DNA of 42,446 bases, from the sequence record MN850581.1; one strand, given 5' to 3'. A program made the position numbers and the translations under genes. Positions within the stretch are counted from its first letter, which is position 1, and every line of letters begins with the position of its first letter. A model generated the notes under the pieces. It was not told where the DNA came from, ran no database searches, and saw nothing but the letters and a program-made list of their open reading frames with translations. Below, one piece after another: positions 9,204 through 39,923 of the stretch. The stretch is from Escherichia phage sortkaff.

Positions 9204-9487
9204 TCACAATGGAAAAATACTGGTATTTGTTCGAGGCGCACGGTCGCCAGGTCCTGGTCCGCAAGGGGTCAAACGACGACAACGATCCGACGATCGATCT
9301 CGTGGTCCAGATCGCCGGGGCGGAAATTTCTTTCGCGGTTATCTACGGGAACGAGGGCGGCGAGGAGGAGCGCGATCGCATGTTCGACACGAAGGAGGAG
9401 GAGCTGAAAGGGGCGGCTACTGCTTTCGCGGAAAAATTCATCGGCATCACTAACCCTATGGACGCGTTAGCCGCTTTACAAGGTTAA
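9200..9487 (+). CDS. hypothetical small acidic protein
   Basis: 95-aa ORF; start overlaps the upstream stop. Confidence 0.55.
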   Translation: MITMEKYWYLFEAHGRQVLVRKGSNDDNDPTIDLVVQIAGAEISFAVIYGNEGGEEERDRMFDTKEEELKGAATAFAEKFIGITNPMDALAALQG

Positions 9488-9513
9488 TCAGCGCCTTAAC
9501 ATTCGATCGATAT

Positions 9514-9540
9514 GGAGCCTTTGCGGCTCCATTTTTTTTC
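9514..9540 (+). terminator. rho-independent terminator
   Basis: Stem GGAGCC-tttgc-GGCTCC followed by ATTTTTTTT. Confidence 0.7.
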
Positions 9541-9587
9541 GTGCTACCCTTTTAGCGGTTACTCAATTGTTAAAAGGGATCAGGATA

Positions 9588-9944
9588 ATGTCCGAACATA
9601 GCACGCTCTGGCAGTTGTTCCAGGTGTACCGCGTGGAGTTGGGTTACTCCTTTGTGTCTGCGGCGGTCGCCGTCTTTCGTCACTGGCAGTTAAAACACCC
9701 ATTCCGTGATATAGTTACGGGTGGCGCTTTGTGCGCTTTCGTCGCGTTTGGGATGAATAATATCCTTTCGTTTTTTAATATTGATCACGGGACCTGGGGC
9801 TATCTGGCCTCTGTATTCCTGGGCTATATCGGCGTAGAGACTGCGCTCGACTGGGCCAGCGAAAAGATCCCGTTTCTGAAAAAAATCCGCGCCACTCCGG
9901 CGCATACCACTAACCCGGAGGATCCGACCGATGGCAAAGTTTGA
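9588..9944 (+). CDS. S: class I holin, lambda S-like
   Basis: Similar to lambda S as recalled from memory (SVFLGYIGVETALDW versus lambda SVFIGYIGTDS); hydrophobic TM segments; ATG with AGGA RBS. An in-frame TTG at 9567 would add MLKGIRI. Confidence 0.75.
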   Translation: MSEHSTLWQLFQVYRVELGYSFVSAAVAVFRHWQLKHPFRDIVTGGALCAFVAFGMNNILSFFNIDHGTWGYLASVFLGYIGVETALDWASEKIPFLKKIRATPAHTTNPEDPTDGKV

Positions 9945-10404
9945 AGTTACTACCCAGCGCAAGGCGTTTCTGGACGCTCTGGCCGTTGGCGAGGGGACCG
10001 ATAACGGCAAGCAAAAAACGAACAATCACGGCTACGACGTGATCGTGGGCGGCGAGCTGTTTACCGATTACAGCAAGCATCCGGCGAAGCTGGTCCGCCT
10101 GCGCCCCGGCCTCTCCTCTACCGCTGCTGGCCGTTATCAGCTCCTGAGCAAGTATTACGGCCACTATAAGGACCTGCTGGGCCTGCCGGACTTCTCCCCG
10201 GCGTCGCAGGACCAGATCGCCCTCCAGCAAATCAGCGAGCGCCGCGCGCTGGCCGACATTGACGCAGGCCGGATCGCCGACGCGGTGAAAAAATGTAACA
10301 CCATCTGGGCCTCCCTGCCTGGCTCGCCGTATGGTCAGCGCACGGAGACGCTCGACGACTTCCTGAGCTATTTCCGCAAGGCTGGCGGTAAGGTCGCCGA
10401 ATGA
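9931..10404 (+). CDS. R: endolysin, lambda R-type lytic transglycosylase
   Basis: 157 aa with extended similarity to lambda R recalled from memory (QRKAFLD, EGTDNG, NHGYDVIVGGELFTDYS, AGRYQLL, FSP.SQD..ALQQI, IWASLPG); catalytic-Glu context GEGT; RBS GGAGGA. Confidence 0.9.
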   Translation: MAKFEVTTQRKAFLDALAVGEGTDNGKQKTNNHGYDVIVGGELFTDYSKHPAKLVRLRPGLSSTAAGRYQLLSKYYGHYKDLLGLPDFSPASQDQIALQQISERRALADIDAGRIADAVKKCNTIWASLPGSPYGQRTETLDDFLSYFRKAGGKVAE

Positions 10405-10922
10405 TGGCCGCCCTCCGGTTGTTCCTGCGCGCCTACTGGAAGCCGCTCGCGGTGCTGGTTGCCGTGCTGCTGGCTCTGGGGGGATCTTTCTGGGCTGGTC
10501 ATGTCTGGACCGATCGAGGCTGGCAGGTGAAGGAGTCCGCCCGCAAGGCAGACGAATCCGCCCAGGTCGCCATCGGTGAACATGCCGCCCGTATCATTGA
10601 ACAAGGGCGGGACATTGCCCGCGAGGAGGCTGTAAAACATGCGAACGAACAAGCCGCACGGGCGCGCGCTGATTCCGCTGCTGCTGGGGCTGCTCTTGAT
10701 CGGCTGCTCGCACGAGCAAAGGCCGCCGAACAAGGTAACGCCGCCGCAAGTGCGACCGCTGCCCTCGGAAGCCAGGCAAGGGACAAGACCGCCCGAATGT
10801 ACGCCGACTTGCTCGAAGGGACTGGAGCGCTCGCTCGACGGTATGCTGATATAGCCGACGACGCGATCACGAGGGGGGAGACTTGCGAAAGGATCTATGA
10901 CTCGATAGTGAGTCAGCAATGA
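10401..10922 (+). CDS. Rz: i-spanin (Rz-like)
   Basis: 173 aa; N-terminal TM (LAVLVAVLLALGGSFWAG) then Ala/Glu/Arg-rich coiled-coil-like region; directly after the endolysin with overlapping start (ATGA). Confidence 0.75.
   Translation: MMAALRLFLRAYWKPLAVLVAVLLALGGSFWAGHVWTDRGWQVKESARKADESAQVAIGEHAARIIEQGRDIAREEAVKHANEQAARARADSAAAGAALDRLLARAKAAEQGNAAASATAALGSQARDKTARMYADLLEGTGALARRYADIADDAITRGETCERIYDSIVSQQ
10639..10854 (+). CDS. Rz1: o-spanin (Rz1-like lipoprotein) embedded in a different frame within Rz
   Basis: 71-aa ORF wholly inside Rz in another frame; lipoprotein signal with lipobox LLIGC, proline-rich mature part; GGAGG about 9 nt upstream. Confidence 0.7.
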   Translation: MRTNKPHGRALIPLLLGLLLIGCSHEQRPPNKVTPPQVRPLPSEARQGTRPPECTPTCSKGLERSLDGMLI

Positions 10923-10926
10923 GAGA

Positions 10927-10949
10927 GGGGCCTTGCGGCCCCTTTTTTT
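10927..10949 (+). terminator. rho-independent terminator of the lysis operon
   Basis: GGGGCC-ttgc-GGCCCC followed by T7; the T-tract overlaps the stop of the convergent Ig-like gene. Confidence 0.75.
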
Positions 10950-11949
10950 ATGCGGTGACGGTGAGAGCGCAAGCCGTGGAGGTTGCAGTCTTTCCGCCCG
11001 CGTCAGTAACGCGGCAAGTGTAGGATCCTGCGTCGCCAGACGCCGCTCCGGTTTTCGTGAACGTGGCCGACGTTGCGCCGGAAACTGCTACGCCATCCTT
11101 AAGCCACTGATAGGTTAACGGGGCTACGCCGCCGGAAGCCTGCACAGGGCCGATCGAGATATTGCCACCAGTAGCGACGGAGGACGTCGCCGGGGGCTGC
11201 GTCGTAAACGCCGGGAGCGTGTTTAACGTCACGGCGCAAGCCTGAGACGTAACGGAGCCTTGCGGCACGGCGCTGTCCTTCACAATACACGTATACGTCG
11301 CATTGTCCCCGGTCGCGGCGGTTTTGGTATACGTGGCCGCCGTGGCCCCGGCGATGTTTACGCCGTTTTTCTGCCACTGGTAGGAGTACGGCGCGAGGCC
11401 GCCAGCCGCTGCGACGGTCAGCGTCAACGGGTCGCCGATGTAGACGGCTTTAGTCGGCGTCAGGTTGGTAGAGAGGGACAGGGCGACTTTGAGGCGGATC
11501 CGCTGGGAGTCCTTCGTCTGGCCCTGGCTGTCCGTCACGGTCACGTAATAGTCGCCGTTGTTGCTCGCCTGGTAGTTGGCGATCGCATAGCTCGGCGAGT
11601 TGGATCCGACGTTAACAGTCGTCCCGCCGGAGACTTTCTTCCACTGGTAGGACAGCGGAGCGATCCCCCCAGAGGCGGCGACGGTCAGCGTCTGCGTTGC
11701 GCCAGCCGCGACGAAGGTCGATCCGGCATCACCGCCAGCCACGCCGGGGAGGTCCTGCGTAAACACGATCGGAGGTAGCAGGTTCGGATCGTACTCGATG
11801 TAAAACATTTTCGTGGGGTCGAGGTTAGTCGGGTCAGCGTCTAACCAGATAAGATCTTTTTGCGGAGTCGCGCCGCTGGCCGGATCCTCGATCCGGGTGA
11901 CTTTCCAGCCCAGCAAGTCCGGGCGGTAGTAGCGATGCCAGTAACCCAT
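10948..11949 (-). CDS. protein with three tandem bacterial Ig-like domains after a 95-aa N-terminal domain
   Basis: 333 aa; three repeats of about 80 aa each containing P(L/Y)(S/T)YQW(K/Q/L)K and Y(Y/T)(V/C) motifs typical of Ig-like folds; RBS GAGGA; bounded by terminators on both sides. Confidence 0.8.
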   Translation of the reverse strand: MGYWHRYYRPDLLGWKVTRIEDPASGATPQKDLIWLDADPTNLDPTKMFYIEYDPNLLPPIVFTQDLPGVAGGDAGSTFVAAGATQTLTVAASGGIAPLSYQWKKVSGGTTVNVGSNSPSYAIANYQASNNGDYYVTVTDSQGQTKDSQRIRLKVALSLSTNLTPTKAVYIGDPLTLTVAAAGGLAPYSYQWQKNGVNIAGATAATYTKTAATGDNATYTCIVKDSAVPQGSVTSQACAVTLNTLPAFTTQPPATSSVATGGNISIGPVQASGGVAPLTYQWLKDGVAVSGATSATFTKTGAASGDAGSYTCRVTDAGGKTATSTACALTVTA

Positions 11950-12024
11950 AATTTTGTCCTCGTGGTGTGGCCGTGGTATAGTTCCCCGGCATTGTAGATC
12001 ATCTTTGGGCCGTAAACGAAAGGA

Positions 12025-12051
12025 GCCGCTTTTTAAGCGGCCCTTTTTTTT
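12025..12051. terminator. bidirectional hairpin terminator
   Basis: Stem GCCGCT-tttta-AGCGGC. Plus strand: followed by CCTTTTTTTT. Minus strand: hairpin follows the stop of the 33-aa ORF and is followed by a U-rich stretch. Confidence 0.6.
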
Positions 12052-12151
12052 ACAGTGCTAATGATACGGCGTAACCAATTGCGGCCCATGCTGCCGCGCT
12101 GGCGGCGATTACGGCCCAGATTACATAGCGGTGTCCGCGTAAGTCTTTCAT
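12050..12151 (-). CDS. putative 33-aa single-TM peptide
   Basis: MKDLRGHRYVIWAVIAASAAAWAAIGYAVSLAL; ATG overlaps the upstream stop (ATGA); immediately followed by a terminator. Not listed in the ORF track because it is short. Confidence 0.4.
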   Translation of the reverse strand: MKDLRGHRYVIWAVIAASAAAWAAIGYAVSLAL

Positions 12152-22565: not shown

Positions 22566-24929
22566 CTACGGCCCGGAGGTGATACGCGGGCGCGTTACGA
22601 TCTGCTTGTACATCCTGATCTGAGTCTCCGCCGGGACCGCCGTCTGGATAGGGTCGGCAATGTCCACAACGATCGGCTTGCCCGTATCGTCCGGCGGCGT
22701 CTGGTACGGAGGGCGGACGACCGTCGTAACGAGGTCAGCGCCACCAGCGCCAGCGCCGGGGATAACGATCCGCGTACCGGGGGACAGCATCGTGGTATAG
22801 AGCCACGGGGATCCGGTACTCGTGCCGTTAGGCGTCAGCCATTGGGTGATCGACTTCTGGCCGACACTGGCGGCGAGGATCTTCGCCTGGTTCCCGGTCG
22901 GGAAGTACGCGCCAGCCTCGACGACCAGATAAGGCTTAAGCCCTACGATCCCATTAGGACCGCCCGCCGGGTCGTTGCTGCCATAGTCATAAGTCCAGAC
23001 CAGATCGCCCCGGTCAAACTCGCGGCCACACGGGAAGAAATTACCGTACCCGCCGTGGGAGGTGATATCAGGGAAAAACTGCTTAGACACTCCCCCCAGC
23101 ATGGCCCCCAGAGAGCCGTCAATATTGACGTACATCCGGGCCTCGACGTTACAGTTAATCATGTTGATATTGCTGTAACGGCATTTGCTCCACGCCTGCG
23201 TTACCGGGTTCAGGCTGTTCACGTTCATCATGTTCAGCACGGACTTAGTACGAATGTACTGGCCGGAGGAGGTGGTCCCGCCTGCGGAGTCGTCGCCGAT
23301 CGCGTCCAGCTCCCAGAAATTCACGTTAAACATGTCGAGCTGAGTCGCCACGCCGAAGATCGTCAGCTTATAGCAGTCGATGTTTTCCAGCTTAACGCGG
23401 TTGTCGTGCGGCGCACGGTTGACGCCTGCGGTCGGGTCGCCGGGGTCGGCTGCTACCGGGCAGTAAACGCGGCCAGTTTTCGTCTTAACGTTGCGGATCG
23501 TGTAGTTGCGCGGCGCGGACTGGCGAGGCGGCCCCCATTCCATATGGATGATTCGCAGATCGTGGACGTCGGTCGTCGCGTTGCCGACGGGTTCCCCGGT
23601 CACGCCGTCGATCACGAAGTCTTTACAGCCAGACGTGTAGATCCCGGCGGTGGTGATACCAGTCCCCACGGACTTGTTAACGTCAGGGTTTACGCAAACA
23701 TTCTCGATCACGAAGTCGCGGCCCATTTCAACGTGAATACACTGTTTACACGCATTAACAAGGACGTTACGGATCGTGAAGTTGCGCGCGTAGTTTTCAT
23801 CAGGCAGATCCCAGCCGTAAGGGCCTTTGCCCGCCACGCCGATCCCCAGCCCCCAGTTAGACGCAAAGCTGCCGGGGTTAATCCCGTCGATGTTGTCGAG
23901 GAGGATATTTTCGATCACGCATCCATCCTGGAAACACTGGTGGACCACGTTAAGCTCGATCCCGTCGCCCTGCATGTTGACGAAAGCGAGGTTGCGGAAG
24001 ATGCCGCGCGACATAAACGCATTCCCGCCCTGGTGAATGATGCCGTTATAGCCGTTGGTAAACAGACAACCGTCGATCTCGATCGTTCCCCAGATCTGCG
24101 GGCCGCCGGATTGTACGCCCTGGATGTTGATATGGCTGTTATTGCTGCCGCCGGGGATCCCGTCGTACCAGCAATCGAACATCCTCACGTCGCCGCCGTC
24201 ATGGCGCATACGGTGGCCGTTACGGCCATTAACGCCGCGTAGGGTGGTATTCTGACACCACATCGAACGACCGCGCCACGTACCGCCGATAACCTCGCAA
24301 TTCACGAAGCGGGGATCGTTGCCAGTCAGCGTCCAGTCGCCGCCGAAAATGCGAATATTGGAGGCAGTCAGGATCCCGTTAGTGGTCCCTTTCCAGCCGT
24401 CCGCCCGGACGTCGAGGCCGTTCGCGCTGGCGTAGTCAAACATGGCCTGTAAAGCTGCCGTTACAGTTGCGTAAGGTGCTTTGCCGACGAAGTTCCACGG
24501 CGTCACATAGCCGTTTAGCTGCTCCTGCACATTGCCGACGGGCGTCCCGACGTACTTCGCCCCGTTCTGGGACAGAAGCAAATTCCACATCTGGACGGGA
24601 TCATATTTAAAGAGATTGGAAAAGGTGAAGATCACGACGTCGTTTTGGTCTGCGACGACCATAGACGACTCAATTTTGGTGATCAGCTTGACCACTTGAC
24701 CATTCCAGACCGGGAAGCCTGCGACGTTCGTCCGCACGGGTTGCGGGATAGGCGTCAGGGTCCCGTCCTCGTTCTCGACGTAGACCTGGACCTGGTTCGC
24801 CGGGTTAGTGGGATCCGTGTCAGCCTTTCCCGCGTAGATCTTCCCGTTCGCCAGCGCGGCGAAACGGTCGTTGCGAAAGAAAGGTTGCGACGGCATTCCC
24901 AGATTGGAAAAGACCTCAAGATCTGCCAT
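22566..24929 (-). CDS. tailspike protein with P22 gp9-type N-terminal head-binding domain and right-handed beta-helix-like receptor-binding domain
   Basis: 787 aa; N-terminal about 110 aa align with P22 tailspike recalled from memory (FAALANGKIYAGKADTDPTNPANQVQVYVENEDG ... NGQVVKLI versus [34 protein letters not shown] ... NGQLVKIV); the rest is divergent, Gly/Asn-rich and repetitive. Confidence 0.85.
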   Translation of the reverse strand: MADLEVFSNLGMPSQPFFRNDRFAALANGKIYAGKADTDPTNPANQVQVYVENEDGTLTPIPQPVRTNVAGFPVWNGQVVKLITKIESSMVVADQNDVVIFTFSNLFKYDPVQMWNLLLSQNGAKYVGTPVGNVQEQLNGYVTPWNFVGKAPYATVTAALQAMFDYASANGLDVRADGWKGTTNGILTASNIRIFGGDWTLTGNDPRFVNCEVIGGTWRGRSMWCQNTTLRGVNGRNGHRMRHDGGDVRMFDCWYDGIPGGSNNSHINIQGVQSGGPQIWGTIEIDGCLFTNGYNGIIHQGGNAFMSRGIFRNLAFVNMQGDGIELNVVHQCFQDGCVIENILLDNIDGINPGSFASNWGLGIGVAGKGPYGWDLPDENYARNFTIRNVLVNACKQCIHVEMGRDFVIENVCVNPDVNKSVGTGITTAGIYTSGCKDFVIDGVTGEPVGNATTDVHDLRIIHMEWGPPRQSAPRNYTIRNVKTKTGRVYCPVAADPGDPTAGVNRAPHDNRVKLENIDCYKLTIFGVATQLDMFNVNFWELDAIGDDSAGGTTSSGQYIRTKSVLNMMNVNSLNPVTQAWSKCRYSNINMINCNVEARMYVNIDGSLGAMLGGVSKQFFPDITSHGGYGNFFPCGREFDRGDLVWTYDYGSNDPAGGPNGIVGLKPYLVVEAGAYFPTGNQAKILAASVGQKSITQWLTPNGTSTGSPWLYTTMLSPGTRIVIPGAGAGGADLVTTVVRPPYQTPPDDTGKPIVVDIADPIQTAVPAETQIRMYKQIVTRPRITSGP

Positions 24930-24967
24930 TTATCGCTCCATTAGAAAGGGGGCTTGCGCCCCCGTTG

Positions 24968-27900
24968 TTACTGCTGGTTATCGTCTGCGGCGGCTCGTCC
25001 GCCAGCGCCCGAAAAGAAGCCCACGATCCCGGCCCGGTTAACTGCTGCCTGTTCCTCCGGGGTCATGGCTGCGAATAGCTCGCGCCACTGGGGGGAATTT
25101 GCCATTTCGCGCTCGGCTTCGTTGACGAAAGTCCGGCCCGCCGGGGTGAGCTTGCCGGAGCTTTGCGCCGCTGCTGCCTGCATGAGTTTATTAAAATTCG
25201 TGCCGGATAGCACATTATCCGCAAGGACCGATCGCGGGACACGGTTCGCACGGGCCAGGCCCTGGGCTGCGGACAATGCGGCGTTACCTGCCGGACCTGC
25301 TGCGGCGTATGCTGCGGCATGTTTCCCGATCCACCCAGCCGCGCCGTAGAGCTTGGACAGCGGACCGCCAGCTCCCGGATCGTCGAAGCGTTTCACGAAG
25401 TCATTGATCGCCCCGGTGGTCGTGGTGAAACGTTGTGCGCGGTCGATACCATTCGCGACGCGGTAGATCTGCATGAAGCGGACGCGCTGCTCTCGCGGTA
25501 GGTGCTTCATAACGTTCCCCAGAGTGCCGTTAGCCTGCGCCGTCTTGTACCAGTCCACGAAGCCGGGGACGGCGAAAGTATTACGCGCGCTACGTGCGCC
25601 CAGGGTACGCTCCAGCGCGTTAGCCACTACCTCGCCTTTGAGGCTCTCCGGGGTTGCCGCCATCAGCTTGTCCCAGTCGCGGGCGCTGCCGCCTTTCTTG
25701 CCCAGGTTAAGGATCGCGTTTTGCACTTTCCCGGTGATCGAGTCGTTGAGGTTTTTCCCCAGCGTGTCGATCGCGATCGTCTCCAGGTCCTTACGACGCT
25801 TAACGAGCTGTTTCCCCACGTTCCAGTCGTCCGCCGCGCCGTACTTGGCCGCGATAGCCTCCTGATCCTCGGTTAATCGCGCGTAGAGCTGTTTTAGCGC
25901 TGCCTTGTCGGAGTCCACAAACGGACCGGATCGCGTGTTAAGCGCCTGGCCTACCTGTCGGCGGAGCTTGTCCAGACGGGCATAAGTCGGCGGCCCCATA
26001 GAGTCGTTAACAGGCTGGAGCCAGTCCAGCGCCTTACGCTCTGCCGCGTCCAGCGTCCCCAGCCCCTCTACGTCCGCCTTGTCCCAGATATGGCGTAACG
26101 TGTTGTTTGCGTCCACGGTTTCGTTTTTCGGGATTTTGGTCGCGATCTGGTTATAAACGTCGTCCGCCTGTTTCCCCAGGTCGTCAATAATGGCACGGGT
26201 GCGGGTGCTAAACGCCTGATCGATCGTCTGCGCGTTCATGGTCCCCATGCTGTCGATCAGCTCGTCCGCTTTCCCGGCCAGACGTCCGATCCCTTCGAGC
26301 TGCTGGGCTTCCAGATTGGAGCCTTTGCGGCTAACGAGCTGCTGGACCGTCGCGCGGAACTGAGGATCACGCGCATAAGCCGCCGGGGTCAGCGAATCCT
26401 CGATCCCCAGTTGCTGGGCGGTGCGCATCAGCTTTTTGTCCACGTCGGCCATGTTCGCAAGGTCGATCGTGTCCTGGGAGGCCCGGAGGTTCTCGCCGTT
26501 CGGCGCGGCCACGTTCTCGTCGCCAGTAAAGCGGAATTTGCTTTGATCGCGGGCCACGGCGTCCGAAATGTTGGCCTCGGTGGCCGCCGGGGTCGGTGCT
26601 GCATCGCCAGCGGCACGAGAAGCCGCTCCAGCTTCCTCCCAGACGCCCTTAGCCGCATTCCATACCTTGCTTGCTCCGCCGATAAGCGCACGGCCTACGG
26701 CCTCGCCAGCGGGCGCTAGTGCGATGTTAGTCAGCGTCTCCTCCGGGTCGCCACGGCCAGCCGCGATCGAGCCGGGAACGGCACGAGCCGCCGGAGCTGC
26801 CACCCATTTCTCCACGCCATCGGCGACGCGGGTCAAAACGCTGGCGACTTCTGGGCTTGCGCGCTCTGCGAGGCCCATCAGCTCCGTAGCTGCTTTGGCC
26901 TTACCTGCGGACGGCAACGGCGCGAGGAGGTCCCCGATCAGGGTCCCGATCTGCGCGTATTTGTCGGTAGGCGGTTCGAAGCCGGGGATCGTCCCCGGCG
27001 GGATGTTCGGCGCTTGCGTGTCCTGGTCAACGATACCCAGCGACTTACCCGCATCCGTGGCCGCGTTGGAAACCATATTGACCAGCGAGATCGGCGTGTT
27101 GAGGAGGTCGATCCCGGTCTGGACGATACCGCGCCCGCCCTGGTCGAGAGCGTGGAGCGCGGTCTGGCCTAACTGTTCCCAGTTTTGGGCGGCTTGCTCG
27201 TTGGGATCGACGGATCCAGGGGCCTGTCCGGCTTGATCAGCGCTGCCCGGCTCTCCGTTACCGTTCGGCGCTGCCGCCCCTCGTGCGACATTAGATCCCG
27301 CTTGATTAGGTGCATTGCCAGCGGGGACGGCTGCGACTTGCTGATCGGCCCCTCCGGCTCCGGCGGTTGCGCCATTTTCTCCAGCTCCGGCGGTAAAGGT
27401 TCCTGCTTCGTCGAACTGGTCGAAAAAGTTACCAGAAGATTTAGAGCCATCCCGGCGGGCGCTGGTTGCGCGCTGAATAGGTTCGCCGCTATCGCCAGCC
27501 CCTCGACTAGTCCACTCGTTAAAACGTTCATCCACATATTGACGCCCCTCCGGGCCGGGGGTTGCCTGGCCCGCCAGTTGTTTGTCTACGTTGCCGGGGC
27601 CGTCGTGGTAAGCCTGGAGCGCAAGGCCCCAGTCTCCGTAACGCTGGTACATCTGGGAAAGGTACTGAGCCCCGGCGTCAGCCTGGAGCGCCGGATCGCT
27701 CTTGAGAGCGTTCCAGTCGTAACCCATATCCTCCGCCGTGCCTTTCATGACCTGCGTTAAACCGTGCGCGCCTTTGCTGGAGACGGCGGACGTAGGATCC
27801 GCCGTGCCGCCCGTTTCCTTGCTCGCGAGTGCCGTCATGATGCCAGCGGGTAGGCCCCATCGTGCCCCGGCGCTCTCCAGTAAATCAGAATACCCGCCGC

Positions 27901-27991
27901 CCGACGATCCCGCTTGAGACGGAATCTGATTAGGGAGCGCCGTCGCATTTTTCGGCATGTTCTGATCAAACTGGTCGAAGAAATTCGCCAT
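24968..27991 (-). CDS. internal virion / ejection protein with N-terminal soluble lytic transglycosylase (SLT) domain
   Basis: 1007 aa; SLT motifs KETGG ... GAHGLTQVM ... AGAQYL ... AYHDGPGNV; Ala/Gly/Gln-rich remainder; occupies the position of P22 gene 16. Confidence 0.8.
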   Translation of the reverse strand: MANFFDQFDQNMPKNATALPNQIPSQAGSSGGGYSDLLESAGARWGLPAGIMTALASKETGGTADPTSAVSSKGAHGLTQVMKGTAEDMGYDWNALKSDPALQADAGAQYLSQMYQRYGDWGLALQAYHDGPGNVDKQLAGQATPGPEGRQYVDERFNEWTSRGAGDSGEPIQRATSARRDGSKSSGNFFDQFDEAGTFTAGAGENGATAGAGGADQQVAAVPAGNAPNQAGSNVARGAAAPNGNGEPGSADQAGQAPGSVDPNEQAAQNWEQLGQTALHALDQGGRGIVQTGIDLLNTPISLVNMVSNAATDAGKSLGIVDQDTQAPNIPPGTIPGFEPPTDKYAQIGTLIGDLLAPLPSAGKAKAATELMGLAERASPEVASVLTRVADGVEKWVAAPAARAVPGSIAAGRGDPEETLTNIALAPAGEAVGRALIGGASKVWNAAKGVWEEAGAASRAAGDAAPTPAATEANISDAVARDQSKFRFTGDENVAAPNGENLRASQDTIDLANMADVDKKLMRTAQQLGIEDSLTPAAYARDPQFRATVQQLVSRKGSNLEAQQLEGIGRLAGKADELIDSMGTMNAQTIDQAFSTRTRAIIDDLGKQADDVYNQIATKIPKNETVDANNTLRHIWDKADVEGLGTLDAAERKALDWLQPVNDSMGPPTYARLDKLRRQVGQALNTRSGPFVDSDKAALKQLYARLTEDQEAIAAKYGAADDWNVGKQLVKRRKDLETIAIDTLGKNLNDSITGKVQNAILNLGKKGGSARDWDKLMAATPESLKGEVVANALERTLGARSARNTFAVPGFVDWYKTAQANGTLGNVMKHLPREQRVRFMQIYRVANGIDRAQRFTTTTGAINDFVKRFDDPGAGGPLSKLYGAAGWIGKHAAAYAAAGPAGNAALSAAQGLARANRVPRSVLADNVLSGTNFNKLMQAAAAQSSGKLTPAGRTFVNEAEREMANSPQWRELFAAMTPEEQAAVNRAGIVGFFSGAGGRAAADDNQQ

Positions 27992-29308
27992 TTAAAGCCC
28001 CTCCGGTAAAAATCCGAATTTTGCCTTAAATTGCTCTTTACGGGTAGGGGTAGGCTCCGCATAAAGTGCATCGATCGCCGCCTGCGCATTTTGAACGGGC
28101 ATCCCCCCAGCCGAAAGCTGGCCGACTGCTGCGGTCTTGCTGTCGTCGATCGCAATGTCGCGCTTGTACGCTTCGACGCGCCCGCCCTGCGATTTCTCGA
28201 TCGCGTCCTTGCCTTTGCTGAGGGCGTCAACGTAGCGCTGCATGACGTCTTTTAGCTGCTGCTCGCTCATGGTTCGCGGGTCTGCGCTGATCAGTGCCTG
28301 AGCTGCGGCGCGGCCCTCCTGCTCGGTTACGGGGCCAGTACCGCGCAAAGCCTGAATACCCGCGACGCGGGCCTGGTCTTTCATCTGGTTAAACTGGTTC
28401 ATGATTTCCGCCGTAGCGTCACCGCCACCAGTGGCCGCACTCCATGCCCTGTTACCCAGACCGTTGATCCCGGTAACGAAGCCCAGATCCTTACGCTCAA
28501 GCAAGCGTTTCGCCTGGTCGATCGCCGTGTCGATCGGCGCGAGCGTGGTCTGGTACGTCTGGAGAAAATCGCGTTTCGTGTTGAGCTGGTCGGCCTGCAT
28601 CTTGCTTTGTTGCTGGAGCAATTTCGAGCGCTCAATGTCGTTTTTCTCCTGAGAGATCCGCGTGTTAAGGCGCTCCGTTTGCAGACCGATGTAACGGAGG
28701 TTACGGTCCGCCGCGTTACTGGCCGCCGTGACGTCCTGGCCCCGGATCGTGGTCTGGTTCTTCATGACCTCTTTCGCGTAGTCCAGTTGATCCTTGCTGG
28801 TATTGCTCGCCAGGTGGAGCGCCTGCACGGAGCGACGGAAGCCGTCCGGGTCGGTCGCTGCGGCCTGATAGGCTTTCTGCGGGTCGATACCCAGCGCCTT
28901 AAGCGCGTCCGCGTTCTGCTGGACAAACTGCTGGGTCTGCTCCGGCCCCTGCGAGAGCGCGACGTCTGCCTGGCTGGCGAGCTGCGCGCCCTGCTGCTGG
29001 CGGATCCCGTCCATCATGCCTAAGCGCTTTTGTAGCGCCTCGATCTGGTTCGGGTACTTGTACGCCAGCGCCTGCAATTTCGACGGATCACCCTGCGCGG
29101 CCTGCCAGTCAGCATTGAATTGCTTCATTTGCTCCTGTTGCTGCTGGGCGGCCTGCATTGCCATTCCCTGCTGTCGGTTCTGGATCGCCGCTGCGGTGTT
29201 CTGCTGGATCTGGCCGTAGTTGTTTAGCGTGTCCTGCGCGCCCTGCTGAATGATCCCGATATTCTGCGCGAAGGATCCAACGTTGGGATCAGTGCCGAAA
29301 ATAGCCAT
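27992..29308 (-). CDS. ejection protein (P22 gp20-like by position and size), Gln-rich coiled coil
   Basis: 438-aa ORF contiguous with neighbours; Q-rich helical sequence; assignment by synteny only. Confidence 0.6.
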   Translation of the reverse strand: MAIFGTDPNVGSFAQNIGIIQQGAQDTLNNYGQIQQNTAAAIQNRQQGMAMQAAQQQQEQMKQFNADWQAAQGDPSKLQALAYKYPNQIEALQKRLGMMDGIRQQQGAQLASQADVALSQGPEQTQQFVQQNADALKALGIDPQKAYQAAATDPDGFRRSVQALHLASNTSKDQLDYAKEVMKNQTTIRGQDVTAASNAADRNLRYIGLQTERLNTRISQEKNDIERSKLLQQQSKMQADQLNTKRDFLQTYQTTLAPIDTAIDQAKRLLERKDLGFVTGINGLGNRAWSAATGGGDATAEIMNQFNQMKDQARVAGIQALRGTGPVTEQEGRAAAQALISADPRTMSEQQLKDVMQRYVDALSKGKDAIEKSQGGRVEAYKRDIAIDDSKTAAVGQLSAGGMPVQNAQAAIDALYAEPTPTRKEQFKAKFGFLPEGL

Positions 29309-29970
29309 TAGATAAAGCTCCCGAACATATTACCGAACATGGAGGCCCCGGTGTTCATATCCTGCGCCACGCCCTGATTAAGCGCATTCTGGCTGTAGCC
29401 TGCCACCTGCCACGGCAAGGCCGCTTTAGCCGCGTTTACGTTGCCTTTCTGGCCCTGTAGCGCGTTAAGGGCGTTGGTCCCTTGTGCCGCTGCTGCGGAC
29501 TGCGCGCCAGCGCCGGACAGTCCCACGTTAGCCAGGCCCATAAGCTGGTTATACATGTCTTGTTGCTGCGCCGTCATTTGCGCGAGGTAGTTCTGGCCCA
29601 GCGTCGGCGCGATCGTGGTCAGGGAGTTAGCCGTGGCCGCCCCACCTAAGTTGCCCGTAGCCTCTGCGCTGGCTAACAGGGAGTTACGCGCCTGGCCCTC
29701 CTGCATTTTGTACTCATTGCCGCCGTAATACTGCTGGAGCGTTTTCTCCCGATCGATCGGCTGTCCCGCGATCGCGATAAGGTCAGGTAGCGCGCCCGTC
29801 CCGGCTTCGCGGAAAGGCGAGAGCCAGGCGTCTTGACGGTTCATTAAGTCGCGCTGCCAGTCCATTTGTTTGTCGAGGCTCTTTTGTTGCTGCTTCGCCG
29901 CTTTATTCGCGCCGATGCCGCCTAAGATACCGCCGACGGCGTTACCAATTCCGCTAACAATGCCGCCCAT
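29308..29970 (-). CDS. ejection protein (P22 gp7-like by position)
   Basis: 220 aa, Gly-rich N-terminus; assignment by synteny. Confidence 0.55.
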   Translation of the reverse strand: MGGIVSGIGNAVGGILGGIGANKAAKQQQKSLDKQMDWQRDLMNRQDAWLSPFREAGTGALPDLIAIAGQPIDREKTLQQYYGGNEYKMQEGQARNSLLASAEATGNLGGAATANSLTTIAPTLGQNYLAQMTAQQQDMYNQLMGLANVGLSGAGAQSAAAAQGTNALNALQGQKGNVNAAKAALPWQVAGYSQNALNQGVAQDMNTGASMFGNMFGSFI

Positions 29971-30349
29971 CTGGTGGCCTCCTCATGAAAATCATTTGCA
30001 CTTTTTGCCCGGTGATCAATTCTACTTGCTGCGGGTCGCTTTCAACAAATCCAAAGCGGCGCAAACAATTTCGGACGCCCTCGTGACCTGGGAGGATCGG
30101 CGCTCGGATAGGGACGCTGCCAAACTTCGCCATAAAGTCCGCCAGCGCCTCCCTAACGTACTTTCGGAAGCCGGGACGCATTGCCATATGCCCGTCCAGT
30201 CCGCCCTCCTCGTTGGCGTTGATGGCGAATATGCCGCACTCTCCCCATAGCCAGTATGTGCATACATCGTTTTCCGGCCATTCAGGGACGCCCCACGCGC
30301 GCATAAGGGCCGCGCCGTAGTCCTCCGGGACCTGCCTTAAGCCGATCAC
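29954..30349 (-). CDS. virion protein (P22 gp14-like by position)
   Basis: 131-aa ORF overlapping neighbours; assignment by synteny. Confidence 0.5.
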   Translation of the reverse strand: MIGLRQVPEDYGAALMRAWGVPEWPENDVCTYWLWGECGIFAINANEEGGLDGHMAMRPGFRKYVREALADFMAKFGSVPIRAPILPGHEGVRNCLRRFGFVESDPQQVELITGQKVQMIFMRRPPDGRHC

Positions 30350-30924
30350 GTCCCGGCCATCCCGTGCGACATAACGAGCGCCACCAGCGCCGCGATCACC
30401 TGGCGAGCCTCCACCAGCCCGTCCGCGAGCGCCTGGATCTCCGCTTGCGAGTACGTCGCCCCGGCGGCGTAAGCCGCGCTACCATTGATCGCCCCCTTTT
30501 TGAGCGCCCCGGTCGGGGACGTCCAGCCCGTTTGACGGCCTCCCATCACCTTGATGTTGTTCACGCGGATCTCGGTCCCGATCGAGAGAGGTCCGTCCAT
30601 TACCTGGAGCGCGTCCTCATTTAGTTTCACAACGTTATTATTAATGGTGATAATGGAGCCGTTAAGGTTATCGATCTCGCCGTTAATCTGGGAGATCTGG
30701 CCCTGCTGGTCGGTCAGCGCGGCGTCCTGCTGGTCGTTGCGGATCCTTTGCTGCTCTGCGACCTGAAACGCGTCGGAGGCATCACTCCCGGCCTGATCTG
30801 CGGCGCTCCCTGCGCTGGCAGTAACTCCCCCCAGGCGGGTAAGCCAGTCCTTAAAAGCGACGGACGTCCCCGGCGGGAGGCTGCTTAAGTTGAGCTGCTG
30901 GATAAGGAATTTAGTATCAGCCAT
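30346..30924 (-). CDS. tail needle protein (P22 gp26-like)
   Basis: 192 aa; C-terminal similarity to P22 gp26 recalled from memory (GGRQTGWTSPTG ... YSQAEIQALADGLVEARQ versus GARQTGWTAATG ... YTQTEIQAIANALITERR); heptad-like N-terminal region. Confidence 0.75.
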   Translation of the reverse strand: MADTKFLIQQLNLSSLPPGTSVAFKDWLTRLGGVTASAGSAADQAGSDASDAFQVAEQQRIRNDQQDAALTDQQGQISQINGEIDNLNGSIITINNNVVKLNEDALQVMDGPLSIGTEIRVNNIKVMGGRQTGWTSPTGALKKGAINGSAAYAAGATYSQAEIQALADGLVEARQVIAALVALVMSHGMAGT

Positions 30925-30934
30925 GAGGCCCCCA

Positions 30935-32395
30935 TTAGCTTACGCGGACGCGCGCACGGGACAGCGTGGCAGGCGTAGCGCCTACGGTGCGGATCTTGAA
31001 TCCGACGACGGTCCGGCAACGTCCGACCTTGTGCAAAATAACGCGTTTTAGCCACTGCTGCGGCGTGTTGTAGTCGATCAGGATCTCCTGTCCGAATACG
31101 CTCCCGTCCTCCGTGGCGCTGATCCACATCCGGCTCGTTACGCTGTCGCCGCCCACGCTGGCGTCGATCTCGAAGTCGCTTAACATCATGCCCGTAAACG
31201 GCATCAGCGGCGTATAGAGGACGATCTCCTGGTCTGCCCCGTACTGCGCGCAAGTGGTCATATCAAACGCGCCCAGTACCGCCAGCGTCTTGTCTCCGAC
31301 CGTTACGCGGTTCCCTTCGTTAACGTAGTCGATCGCGCGGTGCGGTCCGCTGGCATTTTGTACGCCCGTTTTAATGATCGTCCAGACCGGGAGGCCCTGC
31401 GCCTGGCTAACCGGGTGATCGTAGACGAGCGTTTGATCCGGTAAGTGGACAATAAGCAATTTATGGCTTTCAAAGCTGATCGCCTCCAGTCGCGTTTGTT
31501 GGAGCTGGGCCACGGTGTACCCGGCCAGAATCTTTTTAACCTGCACGGAGGCCAGATCAGACCAGTCTCCGCCGCCGGGGTTCATCAGCGCGATCGTGTA
31601 CTCGCCCACGAAAGGCGACGTAAGAAATGCGAAGCTGTTCAGGTACTGGCATACGGTTTCACGGCCCAGCGTCCCGGCCTCGACGGTGTAGGATGGCTGA
31701 TTGGCGTAAACGTTCTGGGCGTCCCCGGTCAGGCCGAAAAACTCGATCGAGGCGGTCCCGAAGCAAATCACGTAATCGCGCCACGCCCTGATCGCCACGA
31801 TGCCGTCCGGCATGGACTCCGCACGATAGAACGGCGCGATCTTGTCCGGGTGGCTCTCGTCCTCCAGCGAGGAGATCCAGAAAGTGTCCGAATTTTTCAC
31901 GCTGAAAATGTAGCGCTGGCGGAGGTGGCACACGTCGTTAATGTCGCCCCAGGTGAATTGCGGGTTGTTGACGCCCGTCCCGGAGTCCAGCGGCCAGTTA
32001 CTAAACGTCTTGCGGGTCCCGTCGTAGCGGTAGAGTAAGAGCTGGTTTCCGGTCACGACGCCCTGAGAATCGCGGCTATGGGCCATAGGAGTACGATCCT
32101 CGCCGTTGACGTCGCCGACCTCCACGCCTGCGTTATACAGCTTGCCGCCCATTACCCTATAAGCGGAGTTCGAAACCGTGTTCCAGTCGGAGCCACGGGA
32201 CAGGCCCGCCACGTCCGCGACTTTCTTAAGCCCCGGCATCATGCGCATATAGCCGTTACCGCCCTTAATCTGGCGAGCAATGGCGAGCATGTTCTCCGGT
32301 AGCCGGGTGATCCAGTCGAAGTCCGTCCGGCTGCGGCCATCACCGAAAACGATCGGCAGGTTAACGACCTGCCCGCGTTGCGCATAAGCTCCCAT
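30935..32395 (-). CDS. tail hub protein (P22 gp10-like by position and size)
   Basis: 486-aa ORF; synteny with the P22 late operon. Confidence 0.6.
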   Translation of the reverse strand: MGAYAQRGQVVNLPIVFGDGRSRTDFDWITRLPENMLAIARQIKGGNGYMRMMPGLKKVADVAGLSRGSDWNTVSNSAYRVMGGKLYNAGVEVGDVNGEDRTPMAHSRDSQGVVTGNQLLLYRYDGTRKTFSNWPLDSGTGVNNPQFTWGDINDVCHLRQRYIFSVKNSDTFWISSLEDESHPDKIAPFYRAESMPDGIVAIRAWRDYVICFGTASIEFFGLTGDAQNVYANQPSYTVEAGTLGRETVCQYLNSFAFLTSPFVGEYTIALMNPGGGDWSDLASVQVKKILAGYTVAQLQQTRLEAISFESHKLLIVHLPDQTLVYDHPVSQAQGLPVWTIIKTGVQNASGPHRAIDYVNEGNRVTVGDKTLAVLGAFDMTTCAQYGADQEIVLYTPLMPFTGMMLSDFEIDASVGGDSVTSRMWISATEDGSVFGQEILIDYNTPQQWLKRVILHKVGRCRTVVGFKIRTVGATPATLSRARVRVS

Positions 32396-32404
32396 GCTCG
32401 CCCC

Positions 32405-32860
32405 TTAGTTGGCCGTGTCGTCGTCGTAAAAGCGGCTATGCGCCCAGGTCGATTGATTCCCCGCCCCGGTCGGCATGTCGTTACGGCGTTTGAGCGTCGG
32501 CACTTCGTAGAATGCCACCTTAATGTCGTCCCATTTCTCCTTAAGGAGCGCCCGGACGTCTGCGGGGAGTTCCATCTGGTTATCGATCAGCATCCTTTGT
32601 GCCATCTTGAGCGCGATCGCCTCCAGCGTCCACAGCTCCAGACCGGAGTCCTCGTTGCCATCGGGGATCCCGTCGGAGTTGGTGGTGAAGATGTACGGAA
32701 AATTCAGGTTATCCTTGATACACTCCGCCATAAAAGCCTCTAAATCAGTCAGCCCGTCAACGACGGACTGCTGATCGGCAATTAGGAGGGTTGCAGTCGA
32801 GGACAGGCCCGCACGGCGTAACGCCTGGTTAACGATCCTGATCTTCTGCAACGTCGCCAT
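32405..32860 (-). CDS. tail adaptor protein (P22 gp4-like)
   Basis: 151 aa; motifs DLEAFMAEC and MPTGAGNQ resemble P22 gp4 as recalled; synteny. Confidence 0.65.
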   Translation of the reverse strand: MATLQKIRIVNQALRRAGLSSTATLLIADQQSVVDGLTDLEAFMAECIKDNLNFPYIFTTNSDGIPDGNEDSGLELWTLEAIALKMAQRMLIDNQMELPADVRALLKEKWDDIKVAFYEVPTLKRRNDMPTGAGNQSTWAHSRFYDDDTAN

Positions 32861-33399
32861 TATTTTTTCCCTTTCGCCTCAGTGTCCACTTTCTGGCCGT
32901 CTACTTTCTGGCCGTCTTTTTTGCCGTCGTCCGCTTTGGCGTCGTCCTTCGGCTCGTCTTTCTTCGGCTCCACTTTCACGCCGTCCGGCTGTTCAGAAGC
33001 GACGATCGTCTCCCCTTCGGTGTGGACCTGATCGCCCACCAGTTTCTCGTCCTCCGGGGTCGGTGCTGCGGCTGCGGGGACGACCTGAGCCTGGCCCTCT
33101 GCCACCTGCACGGCGTCCAGTTTAAGGCGCTGCTCCTCGACCTCCTGCTCCGCCTGGGTGGATTTCTGTTCGCGGCTGGCGCGCTCGGCTTCCTTCTGCT
33201 TCGCCTCCTCGATCGCTTCGTCCAGGATGTGGATCTTGTTCGGGTGATCCACCCAGAGGCCCGACTCCAGACGCTTTTCGGCTTCCAGCGCCGGGAAAAT
33301 AGCATAGTGGACGAGGTGCGGACCGCAACGGACGGCAGTCAGGCGGATCGCTTCGGTGATGATGTTCGGGCGGGTGTAGATCATTTGTTCGTAGGACAT
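32860..33399 (-). CDS. hypothetical protein with Lys/Asp/Glu-rich low-complexity C-terminus, located between coat and tail adaptor genes
   Basis: 179 aa from MSYEQMIY...; RBS GAGGAG; no counterpart in the P22 gene order as I recall it. Confidence 0.6.
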   Translation of the reverse strand: MSYEQMIYTRPNIITEAIRLTAVRCGPHLVHYAIFPALEAEKRLESGLWVDHPNKIHILDEAIEEAKQKEAERASREQKSTQAEQEVEEQRLKLDAVQVAEGQAQVVPAAAAPTPEDEKLVGDQVHTEGETIVASEQPDGVKVEPKKDEPKDDAKADDGKKDGQKVDGQKVDTEAKGKK

Positions 33400-33441
33400 T
33401 GGAGACACTCCTCTGGTTAGTTAACGGGACAAGTATAAGCG

Positions 33442-33467
33442 AAAAAAAAGGGGCCACAAAGGCCCCC
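33442..33467 (-). terminator. rho-independent terminator immediately after the major capsid gene
   Basis: Minus-strand stem GGGGCC-uuugu-GGCCCC followed by U8; about 25 nt after the coat stop; an A8 tract precedes it on plus, so it could also work for plus-strand transcripts. Confidence 0.7.
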
Positions 33468-33489
33468 TTTCTCATATTGCCGCGCCAGC

Positions 33490-34752
33490 TTACGCGGGCT
33501 GCTTCGGCAGTAACAGCCCCACATATTCCGGGACCAGTACGGACACGCCGTAAAGCGTGGTAAAACGAGCCGTACACACGCCCGCGATGTGGTTAAAGTC
33601 CCAGGACATGATCAGGGTAGCGCCGTTCTTCGTGCGGCTACGCATGACTTTAGGCCCCATGTCGGACGGGAATGCCAGGTTGCCGAACATGAGTTCTACG
33701 GAGCCGTCGGCCCATGCCAGGTTTCCGTTAGCGGCCACTTTGTTGATCACGGTGATAGCCGCGCCGCTTGCTGCGTTGGCGTCAACGTTAGCATACGGAC
33801 GAGACGGCAGATCGGCGTTATTGACCGGGAGGATCTGCGGGGTGATCGTGATGTTGTTGCCGGAAACGTCCAGGACGCGGAACGTCTGGAGCTGGTCGGT
33901 CGTGTCCTTGCTGATCATATGGACGGAGTGAACGCCCGCGATCGTGAACGCGTCGCCCGCTTCCAGACCATGACCAGCGGAAACGGCGATGATGCCCTGG
34001 CGGTTATCGATCGGGACGTCGTTCGCGTTTTTGGACTGGACTTTGTGCGCCGGGGCAGCGGTCAGGGTGATCGCGCCAGTCGGGCCAGCGCCTACGCGCG
34101 GAGCCAGATCGACCTTATACGCGTCAAAGCTCGCGATATCCGGGATTTTCGCCTTTTCGAAAGCGCTCTGGTTGATGCCTGCGGAGTACGCACGGCCCGC
34201 CAGCTCGCCCGCGATATCTTTGTAAGAGAACGGCTCTACAAAGGCGCGGCGAGGGACGCCCATCGGGATCCCGATAGAGGTCATTTTCGCGTCCAGGGTC
34301 GCGAAACCGTTCCACAGGTCTTTACCCAGCGTACCCGTAGAGTTATCGCCTACGGTTGCGACCTGAGTCGCGTAACGGCCTGCGGTGTTCGCCACGTCAG
34401 AATCGATCTGAGCGGCCAGACGCAGGGCAGCGGCGCGGCCCATTTCTTTCATGTACTCCGGGCGACGCATTTCGCGCGCGTCCAGTTTCCACAGGACGTT
34501 CTGAGGCTCTTTGAACGCAGACGGGACCAGACGCTCCACGATATCGGTCGGCTGTTTGGAGGTCAGATCCAGACCTTCGACGATATCAGCGTGGTAACGC
34601 TGCGGGCGATAGATGACGTCACCTGCTTTCTGCATGGTTTCATCATCCGGGCGGTATTTGGAGGCGTTGTTAGACATTACGCAGGCAGCGTCAAAGCTCT
34701 CTACGTACTCCTCCCACATAATTTCTACTTGCTTTGCTACCTGGTTAGCCAT
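33490..34752 (-). CDS. major capsid (coat) protein, P22 gp5-like
   Basis: 420 aa from MANQVAKQ (RBS GGAG 8 nt upstream); C-terminal similarity to P22 coat recalled from memory (RPYANVDANAASGAAITVIN ... LAWADGS versus [20 protein letters not shown] ... VFWADDA). Confidence 0.85.
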   Translation of the reverse strand: MANQVAKQVEIMWEEYVESFDAACVMSNNASKYRPDDETMQKAGDVIYRPQRYHADIVEGLDLTSKQPTDIVERLVPSAFKEPQNVLWKLDAREMRRPEYMKEMGRAAALRLAAQIDSDVANTAGRYATQVATVGDNSTGTLGKDLWNGFATLDAKMTSIGIPMGVPRRAFVEPFSYKDIAGELAGRAYSAGINQSAFEKAKIPDIASFDAYKVDLAPRVGAGPTGAITLTAAPAHKVQSKNANDVPIDNRQGIIAVSAGHGLEAGDAFTIAGVHSVHMISKDTTDQLQTFRVLDVSGNNITITPQILPVNNADLPSRPYANVDANAASGAAITVINKVAANGNLAWADGSVELMFGNLAFPSDMGPKVMRSRTKNGATLIMSWDFNHIAGVCTARFTTLYGVSVLVPEYVGLLLPKQPA

Positions 34753-34785
34753 TCTCTGTTTCTCCAACCGATGGGCGAATAGGGT

Positions 34786-35754: not shown

Positions 35755-35811
35755 TGTAGATCCCCGTTTTGTTGCATACGCGATGTATTTCGCCCATCGG
35801 TGGCGGGGATA

Positions 35812-35841
35812 AGTGTAAGAGAAGTTTTACATCATATGCAA
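35812..35841 (-). promoter_or_regulatory. candidate promoter upstream of scaffold (-35 TTGCAT, 18-bp spacer, -10 TACACT)
   Basis: Minus-strand reading of the 127-bp gap between the cassette and the scaffold gene; weak call. Confidence 0.25.
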
Positions 35842-35881
35842 GGGGGAAAGGTTTAAGGCCGATCCCCCCAGAGGTGGCGGG

Positions 35882-36615: not shown

Positions 36616-36664
36616 TGTCTCTAATCCTCTTTGGGGTGGGGCGGGACGATGCCCGCCGCCGGGG

Positions 36665-37081: not shown

Positions 37082-37132
37082 TGTGTTCTCTCTCGTCGGT
37101 TAATGATGCCCCGGCGGTCCGGGGCGGTCTGG

Positions 37133-37570: not shown

Positions 37571-37588
37571 GGTGTCCTCTCTCAGTTA

Positions 37589-37645: not shown

Positions 37646-37671
37646 GTGTTTTTTTACTGCTTTCGTTAAAA

Positions 37672-39906: not shown

Positions 39907-39923
39907 TGTGTTCTCCGTGGGTG

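Follow-up and report, generated by a model that had tools for sequence, protein, structure and literature searches.

The Ig-like gene and its place in the sortkaff genome

The window analyzed here is the whole 42,446-nucleotide (nt) stretch of sequence record MN850581.1, which comprises the genome of Escherichia phage sortkaff in full. Its subject is a minus-strand gene at 10948..11949 that encodes a protein of 333 amino acids (aa) carrying tandem immunoglobulin (Ig)-like domains. The coding sequence (CDS), from an ATG start to a TAA stop, was assigned from the list of open reading frames (ORFs), from PHROG matches, and from an exact match in the protein collection, where the product is identical to QHZ59572.1, the "hypothetical protein" sortkaff_24. 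Sortkaff belongs to the genus Sortsnevirus, and its gene content is that of a phage with a P22/CUS-3-like virion. DNA of the Ig gene locus is 97.8% identical to that of Klebsiella phage vB_KpnS_IME279 (IME279), a phage of the same genus. The P22-type virion module occupies the minus strand at 22566-42346 and comprises genes for the terminase, portal, scaffold, coat, gp4-like, gp10-like, needle, ejection, and tailspike proteins. The coat protein is very near PDB chain 8skg_F ("Putative coat protein," 4e-171) and is related to the coat protein of P22 (7.7e-37).

The nearest structural gene to the Ig gene is that of the tailspike (22566-24929), at a distance of 10.6 kb, which agrees with the first-pass annotation of this DNA in placing the gene more than 10 kb from the structural genes. 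The same annotation described the gene as convergent with the lysis cassette, and the holin-endolysin-spanin genes do run toward it, with the spanin ORF ending at 10922, 25 bp from the Ig gene stop. In composition, the Ig gene has a GC content of 62.2% (genome 59.4%), a GC content at third codon positions of 0.754 (other phage genes 0.64-0.82), and a value resembling the codon adaptation index of 0.70 (other sortkaff genes 0.52-0.76).

Three Ig-like domains and their solved relatives

The presence of three tandem Ig-like domains, first proposed from the letters of the sequence, was borne out by family searches and structure prediction. Judged by curated gathering scores, Pfam Ig_3 (E 1.4e-21; 77.2 bits against a cut-off of 30) and Ig_2 (E 2e-18; 66.8 bits against 27) each match in three stretches, and I-set scores 35 bits against a cut-off of 23.7. 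The AlphaFold2 (AF2) model, computed from a 10-sequence family alignment, contains three beta-sandwich domains with a mean predicted local distance difference test (pLDDT) score of 92.3. Submitted to Foldseek, this model matches tandem I-set Ig arrays, including RB49 Hoc (3shs). The YQW motif recurs in all three domains, at residues 101, 190, and 280, giving a repeat period of 89-90 aa in place of the roughly 80 aa estimated earlier. The YxC motif, once ascribed to all three, occurs in two of them (YTC at 219 and 310), and the first carries YYVTV at that place. Protein identity among the repeats is 36-47%, and no tandem repeat was found at the DNA level across this part of the gene.

Ig-like domain 1 (11479..11778, minus strand; residues 58-157) was delimited by the Pfam stretches K319L-like_PKD and Ig_3 together with the AF2 model, and shares 46% identity with the Ig domain that comes first in the Hoc-like protein of GAP227. 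It begins near PPIVFTQDL, according to the model and to alignments with the Ig regions of GAP227_44 and Gostya9 Dec, which start there. Ig-like domain 2 (11221..11478, minus strand; residues 158-243) is defined by Ig_3, SprB, and the AF2 model, and aligns with residues 1-88 of the Ig domain of T5 pb10 (5lxk_A). Ig-like domain 3 (10951..11220, minus strand; residues 244-333) contains the best Ig_3 stretch (246-315) and is an extra module not present in the two-domain proteins of Sortsne, the Murrayviruses, and Kc166B. A recent internal duplication was considered as the source of this third domain and rejected, because the domain shares more with the terminal Ig domain of Kc259 (62% identity) than with the second domain of sortkaff itself (47%) and because the DNA shows no repeat.

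Matches of the 333-aa protein in the PDB were limited to its Ig region. The best by sequence is 9ncf_S ("Immunoglobulin-like domain protein," 3.7e-54), characterized here through its sequence relatives; that sequence is 83-92% identical over 324 aa to phage proteins including one of Felixounavirus AN17P8. Further matches are to Sf14 gp20 (9c2d_S, 6.7e-37, confined to the Ig region of gp20 at chain residues 119-370), T5 pb10 (3.1e-13), RB49 Hoc (6.8e-5), and the Ig domain of the Sf11 tail-tube protein gp24 (5.2e-7). Sf14 gp20 was detected in virions by mass spectrometry (MS) and on hexamers using cryo-electron microscopy (cryo-EM); its N-terminal 118 aa form the capsid-binding domain, and its homologs carry two or three Ig domains (PMC11821841). 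T5 pb10 sits as a monomer at hexon centers through an N-terminal five-helix domain, has a flexible Ig domain, and is not essential (PMC11313276).

The Pfam search revealed no enzymatic domain in the protein. Neither a signal peptide nor a transmembrane (TM) segment was detected, the maximum 19-residue hydropathy being 1.28 and the N-terminus hydrophilic. The earlier suggestion of a host-surface-modifying factor does not agree with the lack of a signal peptide, TM segment, and enzymatic homology, and a secreted factor of this kind is disfavored because there is no signal peptide. These features instead indicate a cytoplasmic protein, as expected for one that joins particles before lysis.

A small conserved N-terminal domain

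The part of the protein outside the Ig region is a candidate virion anchor of about 57 aa (residues 1-57; 11779..11949, minus strand). The AF2 model and the alignments to the GAP227 and Gostya9 proteins thus shorten the non-Ig domain from the 95 aa originally allotted to it. Four beta strands are predicted by AF2, with a pLDDT of 79-88 in the full-length model and 67 when the domain is modeled alone. Its first 20 residues are basic and aromatic, and the remainder is acidic. The domain has no family in Pfam, and a profile search of PDB sequences returned zero related chains, Hoc entries included.

A word-indexed protein search with the first 95 residues found nothing, and the family was later recovered when 1.84 billion representative proteins were searched exhaustively with a profile; it proved rare, with eight true members (P0001-P0007 and P0010) among the 11 matches. 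All eight carry the domain at residues 1-80. In six it is followed by two or three Ig domains; the remaining two stand alone, at 72-73 aa. A 333-aa protein in the same 90% cluster as P0001, PZQ94769.1, is labeled as coming from a metagenome-assembled genome of Cereibacter sphaeroides; it probably derives from a Sortsnevirus contig that was binned with a bacterial genome by mistake.

Stand-alone paralogs of the N-terminal domain (70-73 aa) lie directly 3′ of the Ig gene in Kc259, Lumpael, sortregn, and the metagenomic loci L018, L019, and L022, and metagenomic contig L020 has the stand-alone form only, beside the lysis cassette. These paralogs were placed on the plus strand at 3257-3475 of L008, 1909-2130 of L018, 1727-1945 of L022, and 122-340 of L020, and on the minus strand at 1446-1658 of L009. 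No such paralog was found in the sortkaff genome.

Conservation of the domain is high. Between sortkaff and either Skarpretter or Kc166B it is 82-84% identical, against 57-65% for the coat protein, 58-62% for the portal, and 53-67% for TerL in the same genome pairs; among real genes, the endolysin alone is as conserved. Identity at third codon positions of the domain is only 54-67%, and roughly half of the residues that are conserved are encoded by different codons, on which grounds recent horizontal transfer was rejected as the cause of this conservation. Since synonymous sites have diverged while the protein sequence was kept, the N-terminal domain is under strong, long-term purifying selection.

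Locus and module exchange among relatives

The locus was compared across 11 phage genomes and five metagenomic loci. In every one of them (11/11 and 5/5), the 3′ end of the Ig gene faces the 3′ end of the lysis cassette. Presence/absence polymorphism was not seen, as no relative without the Ig gene was found among Sortsnevirus, Murrayvirus, Skarprettervirus, Kc166B, and the metagenomic contigs examined. On the upstream side, Sortsnevirus, Murrayvirus, and Skarprettervirus have a block of small early or middle-type genes, and in Kc259, L018, and L019 the tailspike gene lies there at a distance of 48 nt, and the Ig gene closes the structural operon. Because the Ig gene directly follows the tailspike gene in Kc259-type relatives, its remoteness in sortkaff is a lineage-specific rearrangement.

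The first-pass annotation had likened the gene to a moron, a comparison left unsupported by the same locus in every relative, GC content and codon usage typical of the phage, and a place at the end of the structural operon in Kc259-type relatives. The gene is not a moron, because its base composition is typical and every relative carries it. The related idea that the product is a moron-like factor outside the virion has to be weighed separately. In that case, a free Ig-like protein, expressed from a transcription unit separate from other genes, would be released at lysis and act as a decoy coat on debris or capsule, block superinfection, or bind a host component. Such a role would suit a hairpin-flanked unit that has a conserved -10-like element of its own, lies over 10 kb away from the structural genes, and is invariably found beside the lysis cassette; an N-terminal domain more conserved than any structural protein, and co-varying with none, would also fit a conserved non-phage partner. 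It is nonetheless improbable: the protein has no signal peptide, TM segment, or enzymatic domain, the gene has typical composition and is not polymorphic for presence among relatives, and one sub-lineage has it at the end of the structural operon. Phage Ig-like domains also fall in virion proteins in the survey of Fraser et al. (2006) that PMC7602432 summarizes.

The number of Ig domains, whose variation among related phages the first-pass annotation had raised, is two or three, and the modules are combined in mosaic fashion. An N-Ig1-Ig2-Ig3 layout is shared by sortkaff, IME279, and Kc237, an N-Ig1-Ig2′ layout is found in Sortsne, the Murrayviruses, and Kc166B, and P0003 has an N-Ig1-Ig3-like layout. 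In Skarpretter, the conserved N-terminal domain is joined to Ig domains of the Kc259/P0005 type. The proteins GAP227_44 (of GAP227, Autographiviridae) and Gostya9 Dec (T5-like) share Ig modules with the sortkaff protein but carry them behind entirely different N-terminal domains, as would fit common display modules attached to an anchor particular to each lineage. A constant anchor with exchangeable display cassettes is the pattern expected of a virion-attached adhesin.

Attachment site

The particle component to which the N-terminal domain might bind was sought by co-variation, in which 18 structural proteins were compared with N-terminal domain identity across seven genomes. The highest correlation (r = 0.83) was that of hyp182, a value drawn from only five genomes and dominated by the near-identical IME279; the other proteins reached r ≤ 0.58. 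No hyp182 homolog was found in Skarpretter or Kc166B, and no convincing partner emerged among the 18 proteins. A second comparison counted group-specific positions, defined as invariant in phages with the conserved type of N-terminal domain and changed in both Lumpael and Kc259. There were two in the coat protein, four in the gp10-like hub, one in the portal, and none in TerL. Because the counts are too small, they do not allow a choice between the capsid and the tail hub.

By analogy, the capsid is favored over the tail, because the closest solved relatives of known location are capsid decorations, as is gp17 of the podovirus N4, which decorates the capsid with three Ig domains (PMC7602432). 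The competing possibility is a tail- or neck-associated fiber (a whisker or collar), with the N-terminal domain on the gp4-like or gp10-like hub or on the tailspike, and with the Ig domains acting as accessory adhesins beside the tailspikes. It draws on the order of genes in Kc259, L018, and L019, where the Ig gene directly follows that of the tailspike, and on the hub, which, besides its four grouping positions, has nine at which Lumpael alone departs, compared with two in the IME_EC2 control. These are small raw counts of co-varying positions, however, and the head-binding domain of the tailspike does not co-vary with the N-terminal domain, being 50-59% identical in all comparisons. A "collar" has been described by electron microscopy of Kc166B and Kc237 (PMC8402661), and labels in GenBank, RefSeq, and PHROG include "tail protein," "neck whiskers," and "major tail subunit." These labels are best explained as propagated from Ig-domain similarity; pb10 was first misclassified as a tail protein in this way (PMC7602432) and the annotation note of GAP227 shows the same route. 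With the nearest placed Ig relatives on capsids, attachment to the tail or neck is unlikely, though less so than a role outside the virion.

Proposed role

The reading that we favor, at a probability of roughly 60%, is that the product of the Ig gene is an accessory, non-essential part of the virion in a P22/CUS-3-like podovirus, built on the pb10/gp20 plan and probably located on the capsid. The decoration or adhesion role put forward in the first-pass annotation gains support from the Ig homology to placed capsid decorations and from a layout of non-Ig anchor followed by Ig domains, as in pb10 and gp20. We infer that the protein is associated with the virion and that its Ig fiber binds glycans. 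In the proposed mechanism, the N-terminal domain of about 57 aa would anchor the protein non-covalently to the assembled particle, most likely on the capsid surface with one monomer per capsomer. The three flexible Ig-like domains would project some 10 nm outward as a fiber, making weak multivalent contacts with host or environmental polysaccharide (capsule, lipopolysaccharide, colanic acid, or mucin-type glycans) and so increasing rates of encounter and adsorption. The Ig modules would serve as exchangeable cassettes, two or three in differing combinations, while the anchor is kept constant.

Several observations weigh against a capsid decoration of this kind. The gene lies 10.6 kb from the structural genes, behind a terminator and adjoining early or middle-type genes, and a sigma-70 scan found no full promoter on its strand and no convincing -35. 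The N-terminal domain resembles no known capsid-binding domain in sequence (profile against the PDB) or in fold, and it has no match among the folds of solved structures. Its divergence tracks no structural protein, as seen in Lumpael, where the domain is 42% identical and the coat protein 77%, and the coat positions that follow the N-terminal domain grouping are only two and adjacent, D141 and S143. PHROG 3995 ("tail protein," E 3.9e-81, residues 6-247) and PHROG 2973 ("Hoc-like head decoration," E 9.8e-69, residues 14-243) both cover the N-terminal domain and the Ig region, and the database labels "tail protein," "neck whiskers," and "Hoc-like" are mutually contradictory and are annotation only. 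Virion proteomics or cryo-EM of a Sortsnevirus, Murrayvirus, or Skarprettervirus was not found in the searched literature.

A more specific proposal, which we put forward tentatively, is that the 57-aa domain is a new virion-anchor fold of one clade of P22/CUS-3-like podoviruses, occurring either fused to swappable Ig cassettes or, in some phages, as a stand-alone protein of 70 aa encoded just downstream, and that both forms may share one site. If the fused and stand-alone forms compete for or co-occupy that site, the pair would set the number of Ig fibers per particle. The domain would then offer P22-type capsids a natural plug-in tag of compact size.

Virion proteins that display Ig domains also serve as display scaffolds. 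They affect phage adsorption, mucosal persistence, and epithelial uptake (PMC13370021). A search of the literature gave no Hoc-like decoration of P22-type capsids and no Hoc-style display protein of P22/CUS-3-like podoviruses; if borne on the virion, this protein family would extend Ig display to such phages via an anchor that is new, very small, and conserved to an unusual degree. What is new is modest, namely the small conserved anchor domain, its stand-alone paralog, and a Hoc-style display protein in P22/CUS-3-like podoviruses, and the protein is otherwise of a known and fairly ordinary kind. The inconsistent labels of the family, "hypothetical" among them, are better read as "Ig-like display protein, attachment site unknown."

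Expression signals and neighboring features

In an alignment of the upstream region from nine related phages, a fixed order was found, consisting of a 33-codon ORF, a hairpin, an GATGATCTACAATGCCGGGG element with TACAAT, GAGGA, and the ATG at 11949. The Shine-Dalgarno sequence GAGGA (11957..11961, minus strand) lies 7 nt upstream of the ATG, and its GAGG is invariant in all nine phages. The upstream element AGATGATCTACAATGCCGGGG (11984..12004, minus strand), with the -10-like TACAAT at 11996-11991, is a candidate promoter of the Ig gene. Its GATGATCTACAATGCC portion is invariant in eight of the nine phages, and the distant Kc166B retains TGATCAATAATGCCGGG. The element occurs once in the sortkaff genome (chance expectation, 0 matches), and a promoter motif shared with other genes was rejected, as it was found nowhere else in the genome. 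The Ig gene probably has its own promoter, either activator-dependent or -35-independent, and may be expressed late from the conserved -10-like element.

In Murrayvirus records (L004, L005, and L007 2459-2500), the Ig gene is annotated to start 14 codons further upstream, MPGQYTAQFHEDKI..., at an ATG inside TACAATGCC. This longer N-terminus was rejected as the true start. Because the equivalent upstream ATG in TACAATGCC is out of frame in sortkaff (11947-11992, minus strand), 11949 is the real start, and the annotated Murrayvirus starts are probably misannotated.

The first-pass annotation also described the gene as flanked by terminators. Strong hairpins do lie on both sides, and the downstream one lacks a U-tract in the direction of the Ig gene. 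The upstream hairpin (12023..12043), found by a terminator scan of both strands, insulates the Ig gene from the upstream minus-strand operon. On the minus strand it is preceded by A8 and followed by UUUCGUUU, and on the plus strand it reads as a hairpin with U8, so that it resembles a two-way terminator. Its folding energies are -23.8 and -22.5 kcal/mol (z -5.9 and -4.9), and it is kept in Sortsnevirus and Murrayvirus. The downstream hairpin GGGGCC-TTGC-GGCCCC (10927..10942) lies between the convergent spanin and Ig genes, the Ig stop codon falling within its T-run, and folds with -23.1 kcal/mol on the plus strand (z -3.7) and -18.6 kcal/mol on the minus strand. U7 follows it only in the plus (lysis) direction; in the direction of the Ig gene it is followed by UCUCUCAUUG, with no U-tract. 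To the lysis cassette it is a canonical terminator, to the Ig gene only a bare hairpin. An Rfam scan of the Ig gene flanks gave nothing at gathering score.

A further strong hairpin with U8 (9512-9540, plus strand) precedes the lysis cassette, just after the stop of the upstream plus-strand operon, with a promoter-like site at 9475-9502 (region 9475-9590). With this hairpin and that at 12023-12043, both convergent units, lysis and Ig, therefore lie behind terminators, and control of the lysis genes and the Ig gene by read-through or antitermination is conceivable. The plus strand also carries a promoter-like TTGTCC-17-TATAGT, preceded by TG, that faces the plus-strand hairpin and U8 at 12025-12051 (region 11954-12051). 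The predicted RNA of about 60 nt would be antisense to the Ig gene promoter region; Murrayviruses retain the -10 in the form TATACT, and no Rfam match was found. This unit could be due to chance or could be a small regulatory RNA.

The conserved 33-codon ORF (12050-12151, minus strand) encodes the hydrophobic peptide MKDLRGHRYVIWAVIAASAAAWAAIGYAVSLAL and is the last ORF of the upstream minus-strand operon, just in front of the hairpin. Some Murrayvirus records annotate it as a 102-nt CDS, and the RefSeq records of IME279, Sortsne, and IME_EC2 do not; it has no PHROG match. The spanin gene (10401-10922) contains an ORF of 71 aa in another frame (10639-10854, plus strand) with the lipoprotein-type signal LLLIGC; it looks like an Rz1-type o-spanin nested in an Rz-like gene and goes unannotated in the RefSeq record of IME279. 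A 182-aa gene (32860-33408, minus strand) separates the coat gene from the gp4-like gene. It was assigned to PHROG 28530 (function unknown), and in Kc166B and Skarpretter it is either absent or poorly conserved. P22 gene order is not known to include a counterpart at that position, and the product may be another head accessory protein.

Comparison with known decoration proteins

Phage L Dec resembles the proposed decoration in being a dispensable add-on of a P22-type capsid (PMC7602432). It differs in being an OB-fold trimer that sits at quasi-3-fold sites and stabilizes the capsid, and neither its sequence and fold nor its probable role is related. The Hoc proteins of T4 and RB49 (3SHS, 5VF3) are similar in forming an elongated three-Ig fiber, with a weak yet significant resemblance in sequence (6.8e-5) and fold (Foldseek 3e-11), and in having a proposed role in adhesion and mucus binding. 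However, the capsid-binding domain of Hoc is C-terminal, whereas the sortkaff protein ends in its third Ig domain and has its sole non-Ig part at the N-terminus, and the two are not orthologous.

T5 pb10 (5LXK, 5LXL, 8ZVI) is likewise organized as an N-terminal anchor followed by flexible Ig-like sequence, and its Ig domain is homologous, with 5lxk_A aligned to sortkaff residues 156-244 (3.1e-13). It has one Ig domain in contrast to three, and its five-helix anchor (residues 2-68) has no sequence or fold similarity to the sortkaff anchor, which is predicted to be beta-rich. T5 is also a siphovirus with a T=13 capsid, whereas sortkaff is a podovirus with a P22/CUS-3-like capsid. Sf14 gp20 (9C2D) and the 9NCF protein are the nearest solved sequence relatives of the Ig modules, and the gp20 homologs, like the relatives of the sortkaff protein, have either two Ig domains or three. 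The gp20 anchor is a helical bundle of 118 aa with no similarity to the 57-aa domain. Sf14 is a T=9 myovirus, and gp20 was shown in its virions by MS and cryo-EM, whereas the sortkaff protein is known from sequence.

Membership in these families was judged by their defining capsid-binding domains. The sortkaff protein contains neither a C-terminal domain homologous to domain 4 of Hoc, nor the N-terminal five-helix domain of the pb10 family (pb10 residues 2-68), nor the N-terminal 118-aa helical bundle of the gp20/Mooglevirus family. Because these domains were tested for and not found, the protein is placed in none of the three families, and by analogy it would work as Hoc, pb10, or gp20 does.

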